Assembly: GCA_021730905.1 (NCBI GenBank)
Contig: JAKFYK010000025.1
Location: 81,377 to 145,376 of the forward strand
Source: Betaproteobacteria bacterium
GTDB lineage: Bacteria; Pseudomonadota; Gammaproteobacteria; Burkholderiales; SG8-41
Direction: 5' to 3'
Length of the DNA: 64,000 nt
Below are positions 1 to 29,953 of this stretch, in pieces. How positions within the stretch are numbered: position 1 is the first letter of the stretch; every line of letters begins with the position of its first letter. The position numbers were made by a program, and so were the translations under genes. Under the pieces are notes generated by a model. That model was not told where the DNA came from. It did not search any database and saw only the letters and a program-made list of their open reading frames with translations.

Positions 1-1305
1 CGCGGACATCTGATCGGCGAGTGGTCAACACTGGTGAACCCGGGTATGAGCATTCCGCCGGCGATACAGGCACTGACGGGGATCAACAACAACATGGTGG
101 CGCTGGCACCCTCATTTGCGGAAATCCAGCGCGAACTGCTGCAACGGCTGGAAGGCAGACTGTTCATCGCGCATAACGCGCGATTTGACTACGGTTTTCT
201 CAAAAACGAATTCCGGCGCTGCGGTGTCAGCTTCAACGCGCGTGTGCTGTGTACGGTAAAGCTCTCGCGCAAACTGTACCCGCAACATGCGCGCCACAAC
301 CTCGACACGCTGCTCGAGCGCCACGGCCTCGACTGCGAGGCGCGCCATCGCGCGCTGGGGGATGCCAGGGTGTTGTGGCTGCTCGCTCAAAAATGGACGG
401 AAGAGCGCGGGTCAACGCTGGTGCAGACAGCAGTCGATGTCCTGATAAAAACGCAAAGCGTGCCGGCGGGCCTGCCCGATCTCGCCTTCGACAATATCCC
501 GGAAACGCCGGGCGTTTACCTTTTTTATGGAGATAACAATGTGGTGCTGTATGTCGGCAAAAGCATCAATATGCGATCGCGCGTGATGTCACATTTTTCG
601 GGAGACCATCGCGTCAACAAGGACATGCGGATCGCGCAACAGATCAAACGCATCGACTGGAAGCAGACCGCCGGCGAGCTGGGTGCGCTGCTGCTGGAAT
701 CGCGGCTGGTAAAACAACTCGCACCGGTGCACAACCGACAACTGCGCCGCAATTCACAGTTGTGCGCGTGGCATTGGCATGATGAGGATATCGGGAATCC
801 GCCGCGGCTCGCGACGGCAGCAGACATCGACCTTGCGCATTTCGGCGAACTATACGGCCTGTTCCGCTCGCGCGCCGCTGCGATCGAAGCGCTGCGCGAC
901 ATCGCCGCCTCCCATGGACTGTGCAATATTCTGCTGGGCATCGAGAAGCGCGAGGGGCCGTGCTTCGCGCATCAGATCAAGCGCTGCCGCGGCGCCTGCG
1001 TCGGGCTGGAATCGCCTGCGCAGCATGCACTGCGCCTGAAACAAGCGCTGCGCTCCCTGCGCACGCTGCCGTGGCCGTACAAGGGACGCATCGGCGTGCG
1101 CGAAAACACGCCCGACGGCGAGAACACTGATCTGCATGTGCTGGATCGCTGGTGTTATCTGGGTACCGTGCGCAGCGAAGCCGAATTGCACGATCTTGCC
1201 GAGAACCGCGCTGCGCCGGTCTTCGACGTAGACACCTACAAGATACTCAAACGGTTTCTGGCCAAGCCGCCGCGCGGCACGGAAATCGTGCGGCTGGCGG
1301 CCTGA
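1..1305 (+). CDS. DnaQ-type 3'-5' exonuclease domain fused to a GIY-YIG (UvrC-N/Cho-like) nuclease domain; 5' end outside window
   Basis: Frame 1 is open from base 1 (RGHLIGEWSTLVNPGMSIPP...). Exonuclease motifs FIAHNARFDYGFL and HRALGDARV are present, followed by the GIY-YIG core PGVYLFYGDNNVVLYVGKSINMRSRV. Confidence 0.8.
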   Translation, partial: RGHLIGEWSTLVNPGMSIPPAIQALTGINNNMVALAPSFAEIQRELLQRLEGRLFIAHNARFDYGFLKNEFRRCGVSFNARVLCTVKLSRKLYPQHARHNLDTLLERHGLDCEARHRALGDARVLWLLAQKWTEERGSTLVQTAVDVLIKTQSVPAGLPDLAFDNIPETPGVYLFYGDNNVVLYVGKSINMRSRVMSHFSGDHRVNKDMRIAQQIKRIDWKQTAGELGALLLESRLVKQLAPVHNRQLRRNSQLCAWHWHDEDIGNPPRLATAADIDLAHFGELYGLFRSRAAAIEALRDIAASHGLCNILLGIEKREGPCFAHQIKRCRGACVGLESPAQHALRLKQALRSLRTLPWPYKGRIGVRENTPDGENTDLHVLDRWCYLGTVRSEAELHDLAENRAAPVFDVDTYKILKRFLAKPPRGTEIVRLAA

Positions 1306-1326
1306 TTCATCAGTGATGGGACAGCG

Positions 1327-2004
1327 CTACTGCAGGTTGGGTCCCGACAAGGCGTCGGCTACTGCTGCCGCACGACGGTCGATAAAAGCGTGCATGCTGA
1401 AAAACCATGGCTCCAGCGTCAGCAGACGCGGGGCAGCTCGCACGCGCAGCGCGGCAAACGCCGCCTGACCGTCCCGCAAAGTCAATTCCCCGCTGATGTT
1501 CCTGATGACGGCTTCTCCCGCGTAGGTCTTGCCATAGGATCCTGCGGCAGCATCGCCGACCGGCGTGAACTGTGGCGCGACATGGGTGACATCGTGGTCT
1601 GTCCCGCGCATTTCCACGGTCACCTCAGGCGTGCGCACCCGGTAGCCGGTGTTTTTTCCTTTGGCAATAGCGCCGGTTAAAACGCGCAGTGACCCGCGCG
1701 TCAGTGCAAGCAACGCCTGATTCTGCGGCGCATCGCCGCTGTCCGTAAAACGGTAAGTCTCGATGCGCATTTCCGTGGACGGACGCACCGTGATCTTTGC
1801 GCCGTCGAGCAGGGACAATACCGCCCACGACTTCTCTCCCGTGCGCACGGTGTCACCTTCTTCAAGGTCGAGACCGTAACGCAAGCCGCACTCCTGCTTG
1901 CCTGAAATGACGTTTACCTGCCCCTCCACGGTAAGCACGATGCCCACCTGGGCGCTCGCCGGCAACGCCACAAGTCCCGCAAACATCGCCAGCAACAATT
2001 TCAT
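1327..2004 (-). CDS. secreted FecR-domain protein (chromosomal paralogue of the island gene 24785-25915)
   Basis: Start chosen at MKLLLAMFAGLVALPASA (signal peptide). FecR-like core EEGDTVRTGEKSWAVLSLLDGAKITVRPSTEMRIETYRF...MRGTDHDV aligns along its length with the 24785-25915 product. Confidence 0.7.
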   Translation of the reverse strand: MKLLLAMFAGLVALPASAQVGIVLTVEGQVNVISGKQECGLRYGLDLEEGDTVRTGEKSWAVLSLLDGAKITVRPSTEMRIETYRFTDSGDAPQNQALLALTRGSLRVLTGAIAKGKNTGYRVRTPEVTVEMRGTDHDVTHVAPQFTPVGDAAAGSYGKTYAGEAVIRNISGELTLRDGQAAFAALRVRAAPRLLTLEPWFFSMHAFIDRRAAAVADALSGPNLQ

Positions 2005-5472: not shown

Positions 5473-6369
5473 TCAAGTCCCGCGCCGCCATTGCGACACT
5501 GCAATCCCGAGCAAAATCAGTGCCAGAGCAACATAGGCGTGCAAACCCGGTGTTTCACCGAGCAGCGCCACGCCCAGAAACACCGCCACTGCCGGGCTCA
5601 TGTAGTTGACCAGCGACATGAAGGTTGGCCCGGCCGACGCGATCAGTTTGAAATACACCACTGTGGCAATGGCCGTCGGCCCCACGCCGAGCCACACAAT
5701 CGCCCAAAATGATGCAGCGCTGGCCTGGATCTTCCACGGCTGGTCCACCATCAGCGCCACCGGCAGCGCGATCACGCTGGCAATCAACAACATCGCTGTG
5801 GACGCCACCAGCACGTCGTCGCCACGCGCAAGGATGCGCGTCAGCACGCTGTTGCCGGCGTAGCACAACGCTCCAAACAAAATTGCCAGTTGCGACAATG
5901 TCGCCAGCGACTGACTGCTGATTTTATCGAGCGCCGACGGTCCCATCAACACGATGATGCCCGCGAAGCCGAGGATGAATCCGAGCACACGGTTGCGCGT
6001 CATGTGCTCGCCTTTGACGAAAAAATGCGCGAGCACCATGGTGGCCAGCGGCATCACCGCCATCAGAATGCCAGCGAGCGCGCTGTCGGTGCGTTGCTGG
6101 CCCCAGGTGATCGACGTGAACGGGATACAGTTACCGAGCAGCGCGAGGATGGTGTAGTAGCCCCACACCTTCCCGAACGGCGGCAGTCGCGCGCCGCGCA
6201 GATACACCACTACCAGCAGTATCAGCGCGCCGAGTATCAGCCGCGCCGCCACCAACGTGGAAGTCGGCACCGTCGCGACGCCGAGCTTGATGAACATGAA
6301 CGACGAGCCCCACATCGCCACCAGCGCGGCGAGCAGCAGCCAATCAAGCACGCTGTGGCGTGGCGTCAC
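5473..6369 (-). CDS. EamA/DMT-family transporter
   Basis: About 10 hydrophobic helices in two halves; WGSSFMFIKLGV and GPTFMSLVNYMSPAVAVFLG are typical EamA repeats. Confidence 0.85.
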   Translation of the reverse strand: MTPRHSVLDWLLLAALVAMWGSSFMFIKLGVATVPTSTLVAARLILGALILLVVVYLRGARLPPFGKVWGYYTILALLGNCIPFTSITWGQQRTDSALAGILMAVMPLATMVLAHFFVKGEHMTRNRVLGFILGFAGIIVLMGPSALDKISSQSLATLSQLAILFGALCYAGNSVLTRILARGDDVLVASTAMLLIASVIALPVALMVDQPWKIQASAASFWAIVWLGVGPTAIATVVYFKLIASAGPTFMSLVNYMSPAVAVFLGVALLGETPGLHAYVALALILLGIAVSQWRRGT

Positions 6370-17789: not shown

Positions 17790-17876
17790 GCCGGGATGGC
17801 GGAATTGGTAGACGCACGGGACTCAAAATCCCGCGCTGGCAACAGCGTGCCGGTTCGATTCCGGCTCCCGGCACCA
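17790..17876 (+). tRNA. tRNA-Leu (anticodon CAA)
   Basis: GCCGGGA acceptor pairs with TCCCGGC+ACCA. Anticodon stem CGGGA/TCCCG has loop CT-CAA-AA. Long variable arm and T-arm GCCGG-TTCGATT-CCGGC. Confidence 0.95.
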
Positions 17877-17979: not shown

Positions 17980-18040
17980 CTGATGGTATCTGATGGTATT
18001 TCTGCTGGTATCTCAAGACGAGTGCCGACGAGATACCATC
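17980..18040 (+). promoter_or_regulatory. putative integrase arm-type sites, left end
   Basis: CTGATGGTAT at 17980 and 17990, and CTGCTGGTAT at 18002, are direct repeats. An inverted copy ATACCATC at 18033-18040 abuts the int ATG. Confidence 0.5.
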
Positions 18041-19258
18041 ATGCCCCTTACTGACCTCCATGTTAAGAATGCCAAACCTACCAATGCGCCTATCAAGTGC
18101 TCAGACGGTGACGGCATGTACCTACTTGTTCAGCCTAACGGCGGAAAATACTGGCGATTCAATTATCGATTTGCAGGCAAGCAAAAAACACTCGCACTGG
18201 GTACCTATCCTGAGGTGAGCCTCGTAAGCGCGCGCAAGAAGCGCGCAGTCGCCCGCGAACTGCTAGCGGCTGATCCTCCTGTCGATCCGATGATGCAACG
18301 TAAGGCCGACCGACGGGAAAACGCTCAACGCGCCTTGCACACCTTTGAAAACATCGCCCGCGAGTGGTGGGAAACCAAGCGCGGCGGCTGGTCTTCAAGC
18401 CATACCAATGCTGTCTTGTCACGCCTTGAAAAGGAGGTGTTCCCTGACTTGGGCGCACGTCCGCTTGCGGATATCACAGCTCCCGAATTACTCGACGTCA
18501 TCAGGAGTGTTGAACGCCGGGGCGCGCTTGAACTGGCCTCTAAAACCTTAATTATCGCCGGACAGGTATTCCGTTACGCAATTGCCACCGGAAGAGCCAA
18601 AGCAGACGTTTCGCGCGATCTGCGGGGTGCCCTCAAAACACGAGAAGTTAATCACTACGCCAAGCTATCAGAAGGTGAACTACCTGAATTTTTGAGAAAA
18701 CTGGATGACTACGATGGCAATCCTCTAACCCAATACGCTATAAAGCTGCTGGTCCAGACCTTTGTCCGCACAGGCGAACTACGCGGAGCACTTTGGACGG
18801 AGATTGACTTCGATAAGCGCGAATGGCGCATCCCGGCAGAGCGCATGAAGATGGGCGTCGAGCATATAGTGCCCTTGTCTAGCCAGAGCATTACTTTACT
18901 GGAGAGCATCAAAACGCTAAGTGGGAATCGTAGCTACGTATTCCCGAACGAACATCGCCCACAACATTTTATGAGCGAGAATACCGTCCTGTATGCCCTT
19001 TACCGTATGGGATACCGAGGAAGGGCAACCGGCCACGGATTCCGTGCCACCGCCAGCACGATTCTGAATGAACAAGGCTGGAATGCCGATGCGATTGAAC
19101 GACAACTTGCGCATGGCGAAAAAGACAAAGTTCGGGCCGCTTACAATTCTGCACAATATTTGCCGCTGAGACGCAAGATGATGCAGCACTGGGCGGATTA
19201 TCTGGACAAGGTAAAACGCGGGGCTAAGGTAATCCCCTTTCGCAGTAATGCACGCTAA
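18041..19258 (+). CDS. int: tyrosine recombinase, P4-type integrase (DUF4102-like N-domain)
   Basis: MPLTDLHVKNAKP...DGDGMYLLVQPNGGKYWRFNYRFAGKQKTLALGTYPEVSL, catalytic HGFRATAST and LAHGEKDKVRAAY. Confidence 0.9.
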   Translation: MPLTDLHVKNAKPTNAPIKCSDGDGMYLLVQPNGGKYWRFNYRFAGKQKTLALGTYPEVSLVSARKKRAVARELLAADPPVDPMMQRKADRRENAQRALHTFENIAREWWETKRGGWSSSHTNAVLSRLEKEVFPDLGARPLADITAPELLDVIRSVERRGALELASKTLIIAGQVFRYAIATGRAKADVSRDLRGALKTREVNHYAKLSEGELPEFLRKLDDYDGNPLTQYAIKLLVQTFVRTGELRGALWTEIDFDKREWRIPAERMKMGVEHIVPLSSQSITLLESIKTLSGNRSYVFPNEHRPQHFMSENTVLYALYRMGYRGRATGHGFRATASTILNEQGWNADAIERQLAHGEKDKVRAAYNSAQYLPLRRKMMQHWADYLDKVKRGAKVIPFRSNAR

Positions 19259-25932: not shown

Positions 25933-26508
25933 TCAAATACCGAATCGTTCGCCGATTCCAAACAGTGTGGCGATTCCCAGGATTGCGAATATAACGGCAG
26001 CGATAGTATGAACCAGTCGAACAGGCATACGATGTGCGATGCGATCACCCAACAGAACCGCCGGAACATTGGCGATCATCATTCCCAAAGTGGTTCCGGC
26101 TACAACAGAAAAGAAGGCGTGATACTGTGCCGCCAAGGCAACCGTCGCGATCTGAGTCTTGTCGCCCATCTCAGCCAGGAAGAACGCGACCAGCGTCGTG
26201 CCAAAGACCCCGAATCGCGCGAGTTTGGCGTCTTTCTCGTCAAATTTGTCAGGAATCAGCATCCAGATTGCCATCCCGATAAATGAGGCACCTAAAATCC
26301 AGCGAAGTGTTTGTGGGCTCATGAGCGAAGTTATCCACGAACCCATGGCACCGGCAAAGGCGTGGTTCGCTAATGTGGCAACAAGAATGCCGATGACAAT
26401 CGGCAGCGATTTCTGAAACTTGGCTGCCAGAATGAAGGCGAGCAACTGGGTCTTGTCACCTATTTCCGCGAAAGCGACGATACCCGCAGAGATGAGGAAG
26501 GCTTCCAA
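25933..26508 (-). CDS. UPF0016 (GDT1/TMEM165-type) putative Mn2+/Ca2+ exporter
   Basis: Two copies of the E-x-G-D-K-T motif (AEIGDKTQLL and AEMGDKTQIA). Start set at TTG 26508 (MEAFLISAG...) after AAGGGA; the ORF extends to 26547. Confidence 0.85.
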   Translation of the reverse strand: MEAFLISAGIVAFAEIGDKTQLLAFILAAKFQKSLPIVIGILVATLANHAFAGAMGSWITSLMSPQTLRWILGASFIGMAIWMLIPDKFDEKDAKLARFGVFGTTLVAFFLAEMGDKTQIATVALAAQYHAFFSVVAGTTLGMMIANVPAVLLGDRIAHRMPVRLVHTIAAVIFAILGIATLFGIGERFGI

Positions 26509-26559
26509 TGCAATTTCCCTTGGCCGGAAGCAGACAAATGACCACATCGCTTCTCCGGC

Positions 26560-26685
26560 CGTCCGAAGGCGATATGGTCAAAGGTCTTGCCAAGTTCAGG
26601 AAACCGCTTGCGCCATGACCGGTGGGTCAAGTGTGTTGACGCAAACCCCTGCATCTTATGCAGGGCGACTACTCCCCAATGACGT
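26560..26685 (-). promoter_or_regulatory. yybP-ykoY-type Mn2+ riboswitch candidate
   Basis: The minus strand reads ...TTGGGGAGTAGTCGCC...GCGTCAACACACTTGAC...CTTGGCAAGACCTTTGACC... It contains the conserved GGGGAGUAG and GGCAAGACC blocks as I recall them, directly upstream of a UPF0016 gene, which is a classic association. Confidence 0.7.
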
Positions 26686-27677
26686 GGAAATTATAACAAA
26701 GATACCTCGTAAAGTGTTCGCTGCTTTATATGCGGGTTACCCACGGAGCGTGTTCCTTGCGGCGCAAATAGGGTTGCCCAATGGCAAGTACCCGTACAGC
26801 ATATCTCGTTGAAACTTAATTTATGGCGCAAAGTCAGATATGCGAATGCGAGGGAGGCCTTTTTTCCTCCTCGCCGATCCAGAATATTACAAAGGATCTC
26901 TTTGGACGTCACTGGACAACACCGGTTATCCGCTGGCTGAGTCAGCCCGTGTGATGCGCGTTAAGCATCAAAGGCTCGCAAGAGCGCCCAGAGCCGGGAA
27001 GTCCTTCTGTAATCCGGCCGGACCGTAGGCTAGGTCTGAAGATCGTAGTGGCAGCACCGTGATACTGCCCGCATGCCCTCTGTGCCGGCAGCGCAGTAAA
27101 CCGCTTCGCAGTGTGAAGCGGTAGTTTTAAATGGCGCAGTCTGCGCCAGTGGCCAACGATAGCATTTCATCAACGGCTGCTGCGCCAGGGTTCTTCGTGG
27201 TTCTGCGCCAGCCCTCTGGGCCAATGCGCGTCGTGACTAGCCAGTGCCAACTGCTAGTAACGACGCGCACAATCTCTGCGTCGTCAGGCACTTAGGCAGT
27301 AGTTCTGAAAGTGACGACCATCAGTGACGGGCCGTTCTGGCCCGTTAAATCGTAGGGAACCGTGCAATGCGGTTCGTCAATTGCCCGCCTACCGGGTGTC
27401 TAGTACAGCGCTTCCCTGGCGCAACCCGTGAGCCCGGGTACCAGCTCAAACCGATGCGTCTTCACGAAGGCACTATCGGCGCCAATGCCACGTATCGGGC
27501 AGGCCAGTCGTAAACACAACGATACATACCGGGAGTGGTGTCCCGCGGTCCCTCGTAGCGCCCCCCATGCTTAGGCATGAAGGCCGGACAGAAACACTTA
27601 CCTTAAACGCATTACACACCAAGAAGAACCGCAGGACAAGACAGACATCCCCTCGCCTGAATAATTGCGTCGAGGCG

Positions 27678-27765
27678 ACTGCGCTCGTACTGCAGTCCGA
27701 CTGCATTCGTACTGCATTCCGGATGCGCCTGGACTGCAATCCGACTGCGTTCGTACGGCAGGCGA
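27678..27765 (+). repeat. eight tandem 11-bp phased repeats (four 22-bp units)
   Basis: ACTGCGCTCGT ACTGCAGTCCG ACTGCATTCGT ACTGCATTCCG GATGCGCCTGG ACTGCAATCCG ACTGCGTTCGT ACGGCAGGCGA. Confidence 0.85.
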
Positions 27766-27796
27766 TATCGGCAGTGCGAGTTCAAATTCTCAGTTG

Positions 27797-27832
27797 GCAG
27801 GAATACCTCCATCTTGATGGAGGTATTCCTGC
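27797..27832. repeat. perfect 36-nt palindrome (17-bp arms, TT centre)
   Basis: GCAGGAATACCTCCATC-TT-GATGGAGGTATTCCTGC. Confidence 0.9.
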
Positions 27833-27890
27833 TCTCTTGATGGTGGGATTCCCTCCGACTGGGCACGCGCTGTGTTCTGACGCCGCATCA

Positions 27891-28575
27891 CCACAAAAAA
27901 TTTGCCTTTTCCCGGTCAACCCCCCCTGTTTTTGGGGGGAATACAGCACTATTTTTTTATAGACACGCGGCAGAATAGATCATTCATAACTCTTGATCTG
28001 TAGATGTCTATGAGCAAGCTGATCTGCGAGCCACGCCGCTTGTGCCTTTCGACCCGCGCACAAAGGATTCCGTTCGGCGCATGGGCGCGTTCTGCGCGCC
28101 ACAGTACCACTGTCTCGAAAACGCAAAAAAGCCGCTTCTACCAAAAAAATAAATCCTTTTCCGGTCCATCCCCCCTCACTTTTGTGGGGGTGGTTTGAAC
28201 AAGGCTCTGTTGACTCTCGGCACAATTGATCTACGCGAATTTCTGAATTGAGAAAGCCCATGACAAACCTGAACTACAAACTTTCCCTTGTGCGCCCTCC
28301 TGCCCGCGTACTTGCGAGTACGCCCGGATTGACTGCGCGAGAGACGCACACTGCGGCGCAGCCCGATGGCGCCACGCATCAACCGGATTTCGAGACCGCA
28401 GCAGTCCGCCATCAGGCCTGCCCAGAGCTGGCACAGGCCACATGGGGGCATATTTCCTCCAACCCCCCCCTATTTTTGTGAGGGTTACAACCATTTTCTT
28501 TTATTGACACACGCGACAATCGATTCACGTGAAACCCTGATTTCTTAGCCCATGAAAGACCTGAACTACGAACTG
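27891..28575 (+). repeat. triplicated module: A-run, C-run/G-run hairpin, TTGAC-box, AATnGAT dyad and start codon
   Basis: Copies at ~27891-28020, ~28141-28280 and ~28441-28575. Hairpins: CCCCCCCTGTTTTTGGGGGG, CCCCCCTCACTTTTGTGGGGG, CCCCCCCCTATTTTTGTGAGGG. Boxes: ATAGACACGCGGCAGAATAGATCATTC, TTGACTCTCGGCACAATTGATCTAC, TTGACACACGCGACAATCGATTCAC. Copies 2 and 3 share AGCCCATGA(C/A)A(A/G)ACCTGAACTAC(A/G)AAC. Confidence 0.65.
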
Positions 28576-29418
28576 AAGAAACTGTGCCAGCGCAACCGCG
28601 ACGGCAGCTACGCCACCCAGCATGCGCGCGAGCGCATCCTGACCCTGGTCGCCAACCAGCTGCATGAGATGGGATTTAAAGACATGAAGGCAACCAGCCT
28701 AAAACCCAAGCATGTGACCGCGCTGGTAGAACGCTGGAAGACGGAATCCCTGGCCGTGGGTACGATCAAGGTGCGTATGTCGGTGCTGCGCTGGTGGGCC
28801 GATAAAATACAAAAACAAAACGTCATCGCGCGTGACAACGAGCACTACGGCATTCCCAATCGGCAGAATGTCACCAATGTCAGCCGCGCTCGGATTCTGA
28901 CGGCTGAAGATCTGACCAAGGTCACCGATCCCTATACGCGACTATCGCTGAAGTTGCAGGCCGCCTTCGGGCTGCGCCGTGAGGAGTCGATCAAGATCCG
29001 GCCGGAATGGGCTGACCGAGGCGATTTGCTTGCCCTCCGGGACACCTGGACCAAGGGCGGACGGGAGCGGGACATCCCGATCCGCAATGAACAGCAACGG
29101 ATCGTATTGGAAGAAGCCAAACAACTGGCCGGCAAAGGCAGTCTGATTCCGCGAGAGATGAATTACAAGCAGCAAATGGAACGCTTCAAGGCGCAGTGTC
29201 AGGACGCTGGCATTCGGCACGTACATGGACACCGTCATCAGTACGCCCAAGATCGCTATCAGGAGCTAACAGGCTGGCTCTCACCGGCGCAAGGCGGGCC
29301 GACTTTCAGGCAACTGACGCCTGAGCAGAAAATCCTGGATCACAACGCGCGGCTCACCATTAGCATTGAACTCGGGCATGAACGCCTGAGCGTGGTGGCA
29401 GTTTACTGTGGCCGATGA
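28552..29418 (+). CDS. integrase-domain protein (plasmid/ICE-type 'Integrase_1'-like tyrosine recombinase)
   Basis: MKDLNYELKKLCQRNRDGSYATQHARERIL...LKPKHVTALVERW...GLRREESIKIRP...HGHRHQYAQDRY. The R...HxxR...Y-type catalytic pattern is recognised from memory. Confidence 0.7.
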   Translation: MKDLNYELKKLCQRNRDGSYATQHARERILTLVANQLHEMGFKDMKATSLKPKHVTALVERWKTESLAVGTIKVRMSVLRWWADKIQKQNVIARDNEHYGIPNRQNVTNVSRARILTAEDLTKVTDPYTRLSLKLQAAFGLRREESIKIRPEWADRGDLLALRDTWTKGGRERDIPIRNEQQRIVLEEAKQLAGKGSLIPREMNYKQQMERFKAQCQDAGIRHVHGHRHQYAQDRYQELTGWLSPAQGGPTFRQLTPEQKILDHNARLTISIELGHERLSVVAVYCGR

Positions 29419-29501
29419 CAGGACGCCGATGAAAACAAATCCCAAAAGCTGTAAACCCCCTTTACTCAAATTTTTTCTTCACAACTAAAGGAAGTATACG
29501 T

Positions 29502-29729
29502 ATGAAAAACGCTAGTGCACCGCAGCTTTCAATCCTGCGGCGCAAACAGGTACAGGCACGGACAGGACTATCCCGCAGTACGATTTACGCGTTTATAAAG
29601 GCGGGCTTGTTTCCAAAATCCATACCGCTAGGCCCCCGAGCCGTGGGATGGCTGGAATCTGAGGTGAGCAATTGGATCACCGAACGCTTAGACAAGGCTC
29701 GCGGCAGCAGCAAAGATGTCATCAATTAA
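29502..29729 (+). CDS. alpA: AlpA-family transcriptional regulator/excisionase
   Basis: ILRRKQVQARTGLSRSTIYAFIKAGLFPKSIPLGPRAVGWLESEVSNWI is a canonical AlpA/MerR-type HTH. Confidence 0.85.
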   Translation: MKNASAPQLSILRRKQVQARTGLSRSTIYAFIKAGLFPKSIPLGPRAVGWLESEVSNWITERLDKARGSSKDVIN

Positions 29730-29856: not shown

Positions 29857-29878
29857 CGATGGTATCTTTGATGGTATC
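29857..29878 (+). promoter_or_regulatory. putative integrase arm-type sites, right end
   Basis: CGATGGTATC (29857-29866) and TGATGGTATC (29869-29878), in the same orientation as the left-end copies. Confidence 0.5.
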
Positions 29879-29938
29879 AACCCAAATCGTCTGACCCATT
29901 ATTTTTTGAAATCAGAAAGTTGGGAGCGAAGTGTGGCA

Positions 29939-29953
29939 CCGGCTCCCGCACCA
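29939..29953 (+). repeat. attR: direct repeat of tRNA-Leu 3' end
   Basis: CCGGCTCCCGCACCA versus CCGGCTCCCGGCACCA at 17861-17876 (one-base indel). Confidence 0.7.

Follow-up and report, generated by a model that had tools for sequence, protein, structure and literature searches.

We identified an array of eight head-to-tail 11-bp units (27677-27764, plus strand) in a 64,000-nucleotide stretch of betaproteobacterial DNA, hereafter the window. Each unit consists of a (G/T)ACTGC(A/G) core followed by four free bases. Judging from sequence comparison, the array is a real, non-coding element that is kept by selection. It forms part of a mobilization module, along with a structured leader (a putative oriT) and a gene predicted to encode an MpsA-type relaxase. 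With a probability of about 0.45, we predict that the array is a lineage-specific, helically phased platform for a putative DNA-binding protein, which would act in relaxosome assembly or in the control of mpsA.

Structure of the repeat array

The initial annotation placed eight 11-mers at positions 27678 (ACTGCGCTCGT), 27689 (ACTGCAGTCCG), 27700 (ACTGCATTCGT), 27711 (ACTGCATTCCG), 27722 (GATGCGCCTGG), 27733 (ACTGCAATCCG), 27744 (ACTGCGTTCGT) and 27755 (ACGGCAGGCGA), and all eight were confirmed there. As it also reported, six of the eight start with ACTGC(A/G). The alternation of ..TCGT and ..TCCG endings holds for units 1-4 and 6-7; units 5 and 8 are degenerate. The repeat is better described in a register shifted one base upstream of 27678, over the interval 27677-27764. 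The grouping into four 22-bp units is backed by Tandem Repeats Finder (period 22 with 3.9 copies and a score of 95, along with period 11 with 5.5 copies) and by a second, independent repeat search that returned four 22-nt copies at 27676-27763. The three-unit pattern ACTGCR-N5-ACTGCR-N5-ACTGCR, allowing at most one mismatch, has three matches in the array and none in 100 dinucleotide-preserving shuffles of the whole 64-kb window.

For the information content, 69 units from 10 arrays were compared. Unit positions 1-7 have 1.0-1.9 bits each, values somewhat inflated by the partial use of the core in selecting the units, and positions 8-11 have 0.05-0.28 bits. The architecture of phased protein sites that had been proposed is thus recovered as a conserved core of 7 bp, four free spacer bases and a strictly kept period of 11 bp. 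With one box per 11 bp, successive boxes lie on nearly the same face of the helix. The 22-bp super-period arises from an alternation of G and T at unit position 1, which is limited to the window, the second copy of the module (on contig C20, see below) and locus L031; the other arrays have G throughout.

A peptide-coding role was rejected, as the open reading frames that cross the array are 68-85% identical as protein, compared with 84-92% as DNA. The reading frames across the array also differ between arrays. A role as an uptake sequence or Chi-like site was likewise rejected, given that the core occurs 255 and 236 times on the two strands of the genome, compared with about 311 expected. No array was found elsewhere in this genome beyond the two module copies.

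The mobilization module and its host island

The gene downstream of the array (28552-29418, plus strand) encodes a protein with matches to PF12834 (3.7e-17) and PF12835 (1e-11). PF12835 is the signature by which Burrus and colleagues recognize MpsA, the atypical relaxase of Salmonella Genomic Island 1 (SGI1; PMC10484663), and tyrosine-recombinase-related relaxases are now grouped as MOB_M. The initial annotation called this product integrase-like. The kinship to tyrosine recombinases stands, but the functional label does not: by its domains, the product is predicted to be an MpsA/MOB_M-type relaxase. The residues R142, K168, H225, R228, H276 and Y285 are invariant in 66-68 homologues (those with a residue at the respective column). 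The MpsA-like protein of the window has only a core-binding-type N-terminal domain and a catalytic domain; lacking is an arm-binding domain. Burkholderiales genomes are rich in this family, with 80 loci retrieved, and its members sit on islands beside integrases. Given this neighbor, the context of the array is conjugative mobilization (oriT, leader, mpsA) rather than replication or partition.

The leader, the array and mpsA make up a 2.6-kb module (26889-29465) that has been duplicated as a unit. The second copy is on the minus strand of contig C20 of genome G000 (C20:2368-4968), has 90% identity to the first and adjoins a large serine recombinase rather than a P4-type integrase. Across islands with different integrases, the array, the leader/oriT region and the mpsA-like gene move together. 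A gene for the partner protein MpsB, found 3' of mpsA in SGI1, was not identified at this place in the window or on C20. In the window, mpsA is followed after 83 bp by alpA, and on C20 by two small open reading frames without family matches. A 78-amino-acid open reading frame between mpsA and the serine recombinase gene on C20, also without a family match, has 93% protein identity in L031. The C20 locus (L010, C20:1-8400) has the module copy between the serine recombinase gene (89-1708, minus strand) and a gene for a GDT1-type Mn exporter (5520-6230). The module copy in the window also abuts a GDT1 exporter gene with a Mn riboswitch (25933-26689), in the opposite orientation.

In the window, the array lies within a 12-kb island inserted at tRNA-Leu(CAA) (17790-17876). 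A gene for a P4-type integrase (17993-19258) adjoins the tRNA gene, and the right attachment site, near 29939-29953, is a copy, short of one base, of the final 16 nt of the tRNA. The arm-type repeats of the integrase (GATGGTATC) are just inside both island ends (17983-18000 and 29858-29880). The alpA gene (29502-29729, plus strand; PF05930, 6.1e-22) lies outside the module and probably encodes the excision factor of the island.

The structured leader and putative oriT

Upstream of the array is a structured non-coding leader (26925-27621, plus strand), recognized by conservation and covariation, that we consider a putative oriT. Its parts, in order, are a short 5' element at 26925-27017, a hairpin resembling a terminator at 27100-27122, a long conserved inverted repeat at 27225-27269 that is flanked by GTGACG repeats, and a 3' core at 27475-27621. 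The leader occurs upstream of mpsA in about 60 Burkholderiales loci at 70-95% nucleotide identity. The layout in these loci is fixed, with a short conserved element 700-900 nt upstream of mpsA and a conserved non-coding region that stops 26-90 nt before the mpsA start codon. GTGACG repeats and the motif TGGCGCA recur in all leaders, and the leader in the window has several TGGCGCA/CTGCGCCAG motifs.

An alignment of 61 leader regions supports 12 helices, with 98% of the cells paired. Compensatory change was detected in 25 pairs, compared with 11.5 in shuffles and 4-7 in controls with slid partners. G-U pairs are far more frequent than A-C mismatches, indicating that it is the plus strand that is folded. 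Searches against Rfam at gathering and permissive thresholds returned only the Mn riboswitch and tRNA, with no match for the array or the leader. The array, with its fixed box spacing, adjoins the conserved hairpin and this leader, in which the oriT itself is a prediction. Partial leader copies were identified at G000 C5:7481-7720, C48:27772-27907 and C33:36606-36744 (74-79% identity). They correspond to the 5' element (26789-27025) and the hairpin region (27203-27343), and the DNA search found no full module at these places.

The region between the array and mpsA

A perfect palindrome with 17-bp arms and a 2-nt gap (27797-27832) begins 33 bp downstream of the array. The right arm occurs again as a third, direct copy 23 bp further on (CTTGATGGTGGGATTCC at 27836-27852, the same as CTTGATGGAGGTATTCC at 27813-27829). 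The resulting arrangement of two inverted copies and one direct copy (27797-27852) is reminiscent of recombinase sites such as FRT. The C20 copy has the identical palindrome, that of L031 is decayed, and L041 has an unrelated palindrome at the same place relative to its array.

Three tandem promoter-like modules follow (27892-28551, plus strand), each with an A-run, a hairpin formed by TCCGGTCCA with a C-run and a G-run, and a TTGAC box. After each comes an mpsA 5' end that is intact only in the third case. In order, the encoded ends are MSKLICE.., MTNLNYKL.. and the intact MKDLNYEL.., with the remnants starting near 28004 and 28260. This tandem arrangement suggests repeated recombination at the 5' end of mpsA. 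The module with the C-run is found at most array-bearing loci and at no array-free locus of the set. A strict link between the array and the C-run module is broken by L334 and L156, where the array is present without the module.

Just upstream of mpsA, both module copies have a parS-like site (CGATTCACGTGAAACC, 28521-28536 in the window and C20:3297 in the second copy) that shares 13 of 16 positions with the parS consensus; in the window it falls within the third promoter-like module. Across the 5.1-Mb genome, three or fewer mismatches to this consensus are found at just eight sites. The TTCACGTGAAA portion of the site is kept in L029, L031, L033 and L375. Between the array and the mpsA promoter module, the related loci L033 (3480-3720) and L375 have a conserved 75-amino-acid open reading frame on the minus strand (MRKYSLSEVEHWTDHLHGDYV...).

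Recurrence and conservation of the array

The initial annotation named absence from related islands as evidence against its reading; the array recurs in such islands. At least 11 further arrays have the same core and unrelated spacers. Array-bearing loci are the C20 copy, L031 (from the metagenome-assembled genome UBA5216), L033/L375, L029, L016, L019, L041, L036, L162, L334, L156 and L183. The number of units is steady at eight in the window, the C20 copy and L031. All but three of the further arrays have an MpsA-like gene or its leader as a neighbor. The scans for arrays extended over 185,579 species genomes and a size-limited metagenome sample. Each array with diverse spacers in these scans lies beside an MpsA-like gene or leader or, in the case of L183, at a contig end, and none was seen on other mobile elements in the same genomes and metagenome sample. 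The other scan matches are simple tandem repeats in unrelated taxa, with spacers shared between units. One ambiguous scan match, L116, sits between two luciferase-like genes.

A BLAST search with 27300-28550 against a plasmid collection gave no match at the DNA level, and the small plasmids with MpsA homologues (pSIO1 and a Pseudolysobacter plasmid) have no comparable array. Plasmid pSIO1 (L231, Vibrio paracholerae, NC_006860.1) is 4.9 kb in length and has only four annotated genes. PLSDB types it as non-mobilizable, so standard typing misses the MpsA-type class of relaxases.

Most family members lack an array. Eight of the nine array-linked MpsA proteins are in one well-supported clade of 17 members, and the protein of L162 is a long-branch outlier. 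The same core is kept across MpsA proteins that are only 61-74% identical. Between the window and the C20 copy, the arrays are 97.7% identical, the mpsA coding sequences 93.4% and the flanking spacers 59-87%; between the window and L031, the corresponding values are 92.0%, 87.8% and 59-75%. Thus, the array is as conserved as coding sequence and its flanks decay, while spacers differ between arrays and the core is kept. By these comparisons, purifying selection acts on the core and the period of the array and not on the 4-bp spacer.

The orientation of the array is that of mpsA in every case, and its position varies. It follows the leader in loci of the window type and in L033, L029, L016 and L156, and is just past the mpsA stop codon in L041 and L036. 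In L162 and L334, it comes after the conserved oriT-type inverted repeat and upstream of the 5' element of the leader, so an RNA started at that element would exclude the array. The distance between the array and the conserved hairpin ranges from 0.25 to 1.6 kb across loci. Two of the loci, L334 and L156, are serine-recombinase-type islands with an array and adjoin the glutathione synthetase gene gshB. In the 6.9-kb locus L156, which has no mpsA, the serine recombinase comes immediately after the leader and an array of four units.

Possible functions of the array

The combination of a 7-bp core and a 4-bp spacer at a strict 11-bp period marks proteins that bind direct repeats head to tail, and it is on this ground that we read the array as a possible cooperative platform. 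One small, sequence-specific protein would bind the boxes cooperatively and head to tail, as monomers or dimers, in a mode like that of winged-helix or ribbon-helix-helix proteins on direct repeats. Once bound, the protein would coat the DNA and bend it over about 90 bp adjoining the transfer origin. The complex could then help to assemble or position the relaxosome, or could act as a gate for transcription between leader and mpsA promoters. As most relatives of the module do without an array, it is an optional, lineage-specific add-on. Against the platform stands the position of the array, which is looser than that of classical relaxosome accessory sites.

As to the protein involved, the initial annotation suggested the adjacent integrase-like protein or a factor supplied in trans. 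With the first corrected to an MpsA-type relaxase, this stays the best available statement. Among proteins encoded within about 4 kb of the array, none except MpsA is common to the array-bearing loci, and a local accessory gene was rejected as the source of a binder, since no open reading frame besides mpsA is shared by these loci. MpsA is therefore the only constant partner of the array; otherwise the binder would be a factor from another element, acting in trans.

Binding by the MpsA-like relaxase itself, with the boxes as extra loading, scaffolding or auto-regulatory sites of one clade, is unlikely in our judgment but has several points in its favor. The mpsA gene alone accompanies the array across islands with different integrases, and the MpsA proteins of array-bearing loci cluster on the tree. 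In L029, L033 and L016, what is left of the ancestral start codon and ribosome-binding site of mpsA lies at the beginning of the array or shortly before it. Of the related relaxases, MobK gives multiple shifts on its own oriT, and both MobK and TcpM form several or higher-order complexes on theirs (PMC8152469). On the other hand, GACTGCR is nearly absent from the leaders of 54 array-free modules (one plus-strand match, compared with 6.6 expected), and the motifs found in all leaders (GTGACG, TGGCGCA) are different ones, which argues against the box representing the normal specificity of MpsA. The missing arm-binding domain also counts against this option.

The array may instead be a docking platform that recruits a factor of a helper conjugative element or of the coupling machinery, and so sets helper specificity or the timing of transfer, much as the direct repeats of pAD1 oriT2 reportedly do. 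We give this only a small chance. Alternatively, the array could mark a junction at which the recombinase-like relaxase inserts cassettes. Both ideas are kept because the array is selected, portable with the module and optional, and has no locally encoded binder. Mimicry of a site of the helper element found no support: in the 185,579 species genomes and the size-limited metagenome sample, with the exception of L183 at its contig end, there is no array with diverse spacers away from MpsA-like genes or leaders. Pairs of boxes at 11-bp spacing occur six times in the host genome outside the two arrays, compared with 2-8 times at other spacings (7-16 bp). This lack of enrichment argues against a host regulator with its own regulon.

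Function as RNA is similarly doubtful. In this case the leader transcript (in L041, the mpsA mRNA) would include the array as its 3' tail and end at the downstream hairpin, and the repeated GACUGCA word would bind an RNA-binding protein or a complementary RNA. The orientation of the array, always that of the leader and mpsA, is consistent with such a role, as are its placement directly after a structure folded on the plus strand (window) or directly after mpsA (L041 and L036) and the presence of a hairpin after the array in the window, C20, L041, L029 and L016. SGI1, moreover, needs RNA from the equivalent region (PMC9299015). There, a primary RNA of 650-700 nt directed towards mpsA covers oriT; it includes a terminator-like hairpin near the 5' end, and the essential sgm-sRNA corresponds to its 3' part (PMC6414798, PMC9299015). 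Opposed to an RNA function are the arrays of L162 and L334, upstream of the 5' element of the leader, and the lack of an Rfam family match. The strict 11-nt period, the free spacers and the lack of pairing potential also suit the helical repeat of DNA better than they do known RNA-protein sponges.

The initial annotation likened the array to iterons and to the centromere parC of plasmid R1, and we regard it as improbable that the boxes are replication-origin iterons or a parC-type centromere for the excised island, served by an initiator or ParR-like protein in trans. The 11-bp register and 22-bp super-period are like those of iterons and R1 parC, and direct repeats in helical phase (about 11 or 22 bp), an iteron trait, are present. 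As with the ParR-bound 11-bp iterons of R1, the sites lie on one face and would suit a cooperative protein filament. A parS-like site is located 0.76 kb downstream of the array, and genes for RepA-like AAA_25 ATPases lie 1-3 kb from the arrays in L041, L162 and L183. These ATPases were rejected as binders: they are 34% identical or undetectably related to one another, while the box is constant, and none is encoded in this genome. The claimed absence of rep and par genes from the island holds for the open reading frames scanned with Pfam, and such scans found no Rep gene in the island, the 2.6-kb module or the C20 copy, which speaks against iterons. Likewise, no parR/parM or parAB gene was identified. 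R1 parC has two blocks of five iterons that flank the parMR promoter, with parR adjacent, whereas here there is a single block in a mobilization context, and the only promoter-like match near the array is at chance level. No DnaA box was detected within 1.3 kb of the array (the nearest 9-mer with one mismatch is at 26331, and the count in the window is at chance). Nor was an AT-rich unwinding element found adjoining the array. The GC content in 40-bp windows is 0.43-0.65 across 27640-27879, and the minimum of 0.35 is 180 bp away. As the defining features of iterons and centromeres are missing, we file the array under neither, and the likeness in 11-bp, one-face arrangement stands.

Still more improbable is a functionless minisatellite or recombination scar, which a hot spot at the start of mpsA would have generated and recombination between modules would have spread. 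The arrays do lie at breaks in gene order between otherwise conserved blocks, with remnants of mpsA 5' ends and duplicated promoter modules around them, and most of the family manages without one. However, slippage products share their spacers, as do the tandem repeats found in other phyla, and here spacers differ and the core is kept. Conservation at the level of coding sequence beside decaying spacers, and persistence of the core across such divergent MpsA proteins, also argue against a neutral scar.

Binding by the recombination proteins of the island, either the AlpA excision factor or the P4-type integrase via its arm-binding domain, is largely refuted and now hardly credible. Excision factors of the AlpA and Cox/Xis types bind direct repeats in helical phase, and mpsA and alpA flank the array in L041 and L036, but the co-occurrence of AlpA and array fails: the array-bearing genomes G001, G005 and G016 have no AlpA homologue (E <= 1e-8), and G009 has AlpA next to a module that lacks an array. 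The alpA gene is also outside the duplicated module, the C20 copy of which adjoins a serine recombinase. As for the integrase, its arm repeats (GATGGTATC) differ from the boxes in sequence and are at the two island ends, 2-10 kb from the array.

Comparison with known systems and significance

For the platform that we favor, the closest mechanistic precedent is TcpK of the Clostridium perfringens plasmid pCW3. This winged-helix protein recognizes 9-nt boxes, repeated in tandem with 3 nt between them, in the oriT on which the tyrosine-recombinase-type relaxase TcpM acts (PMC6137059). Both systems have short direct boxes at fixed spacing in or next to the oriT (here a predicted one) of a tyrosine-recombinase-related relaxase, and the boxes of pCW3 are bound by a small accessory protein and not by an HUH relaxase. 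Plasmid pCW3 has two 9-nt boxes with a 12-bp period, compared with 8-10 boxes here that have a 7-bp core and an 11-bp period. The tcpK gene is next to oriT, whereas the putative binding sites described here have no adjacent accessory gene. The multiple shifts that MobK produces on its oriT (PMC8152469) are a second precedent for the platform.

The mobilization region of SGI1 (oriT, sgm-sRNA, mpsA, mpsB) resembles the module in having a structured region of about 700 nt with inverted repeats and a terminator-like hairpin near its 5' end, read towards a gene for a PF12835-type relaxase on a mobilizable island. Unlike the module, SGI1 has no described array of phased direct repeats. In turn, the module has no mpsB-like gene after mpsA, and the nucleotide sequences of the two are unrelated. 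In Enterococcus, Francia and Clewell reportedly described in 2002 a large inverted repeat beside short direct repeats in oriT2 of plasmids pAD1 and pAM373, and exchange of the repeats is said to change which plasmid can mobilize the origin. That system has a different relaxase family (TraX), host phylum and repeat sequence from the one considered here, so the likeness is one of architecture only.

Pho boxes, bound by winged-helix regulators of the PhoB/OmpR type, are 11-bp direct repeats with 7 bp conserved and 4 bp less conserved. They are used as 22-bp pairs and tandem pairs that replace the -35 element of the scattered promoters of a regulon. The unit grammar of the array is identical to that of Pho-box arrays, but unlike Pho boxes, GACTGCR has no regulon in this genome.

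The array is made of direct-repeat boxes beside a transfer origin, an arrangement of an already known kind, and the structured MOB_M leader is the more general feature. Experimental work on systems of this class is limited to three. If the array is only a regulatory add-on of one betaproteobacterial lineage, its interest would be local. The array predicts a specific DNA-binding partner, and phased boxes that are portable, optional and conserved, beside a poorly understood transfer origin, would provide a handle on how MOB_M modules work.
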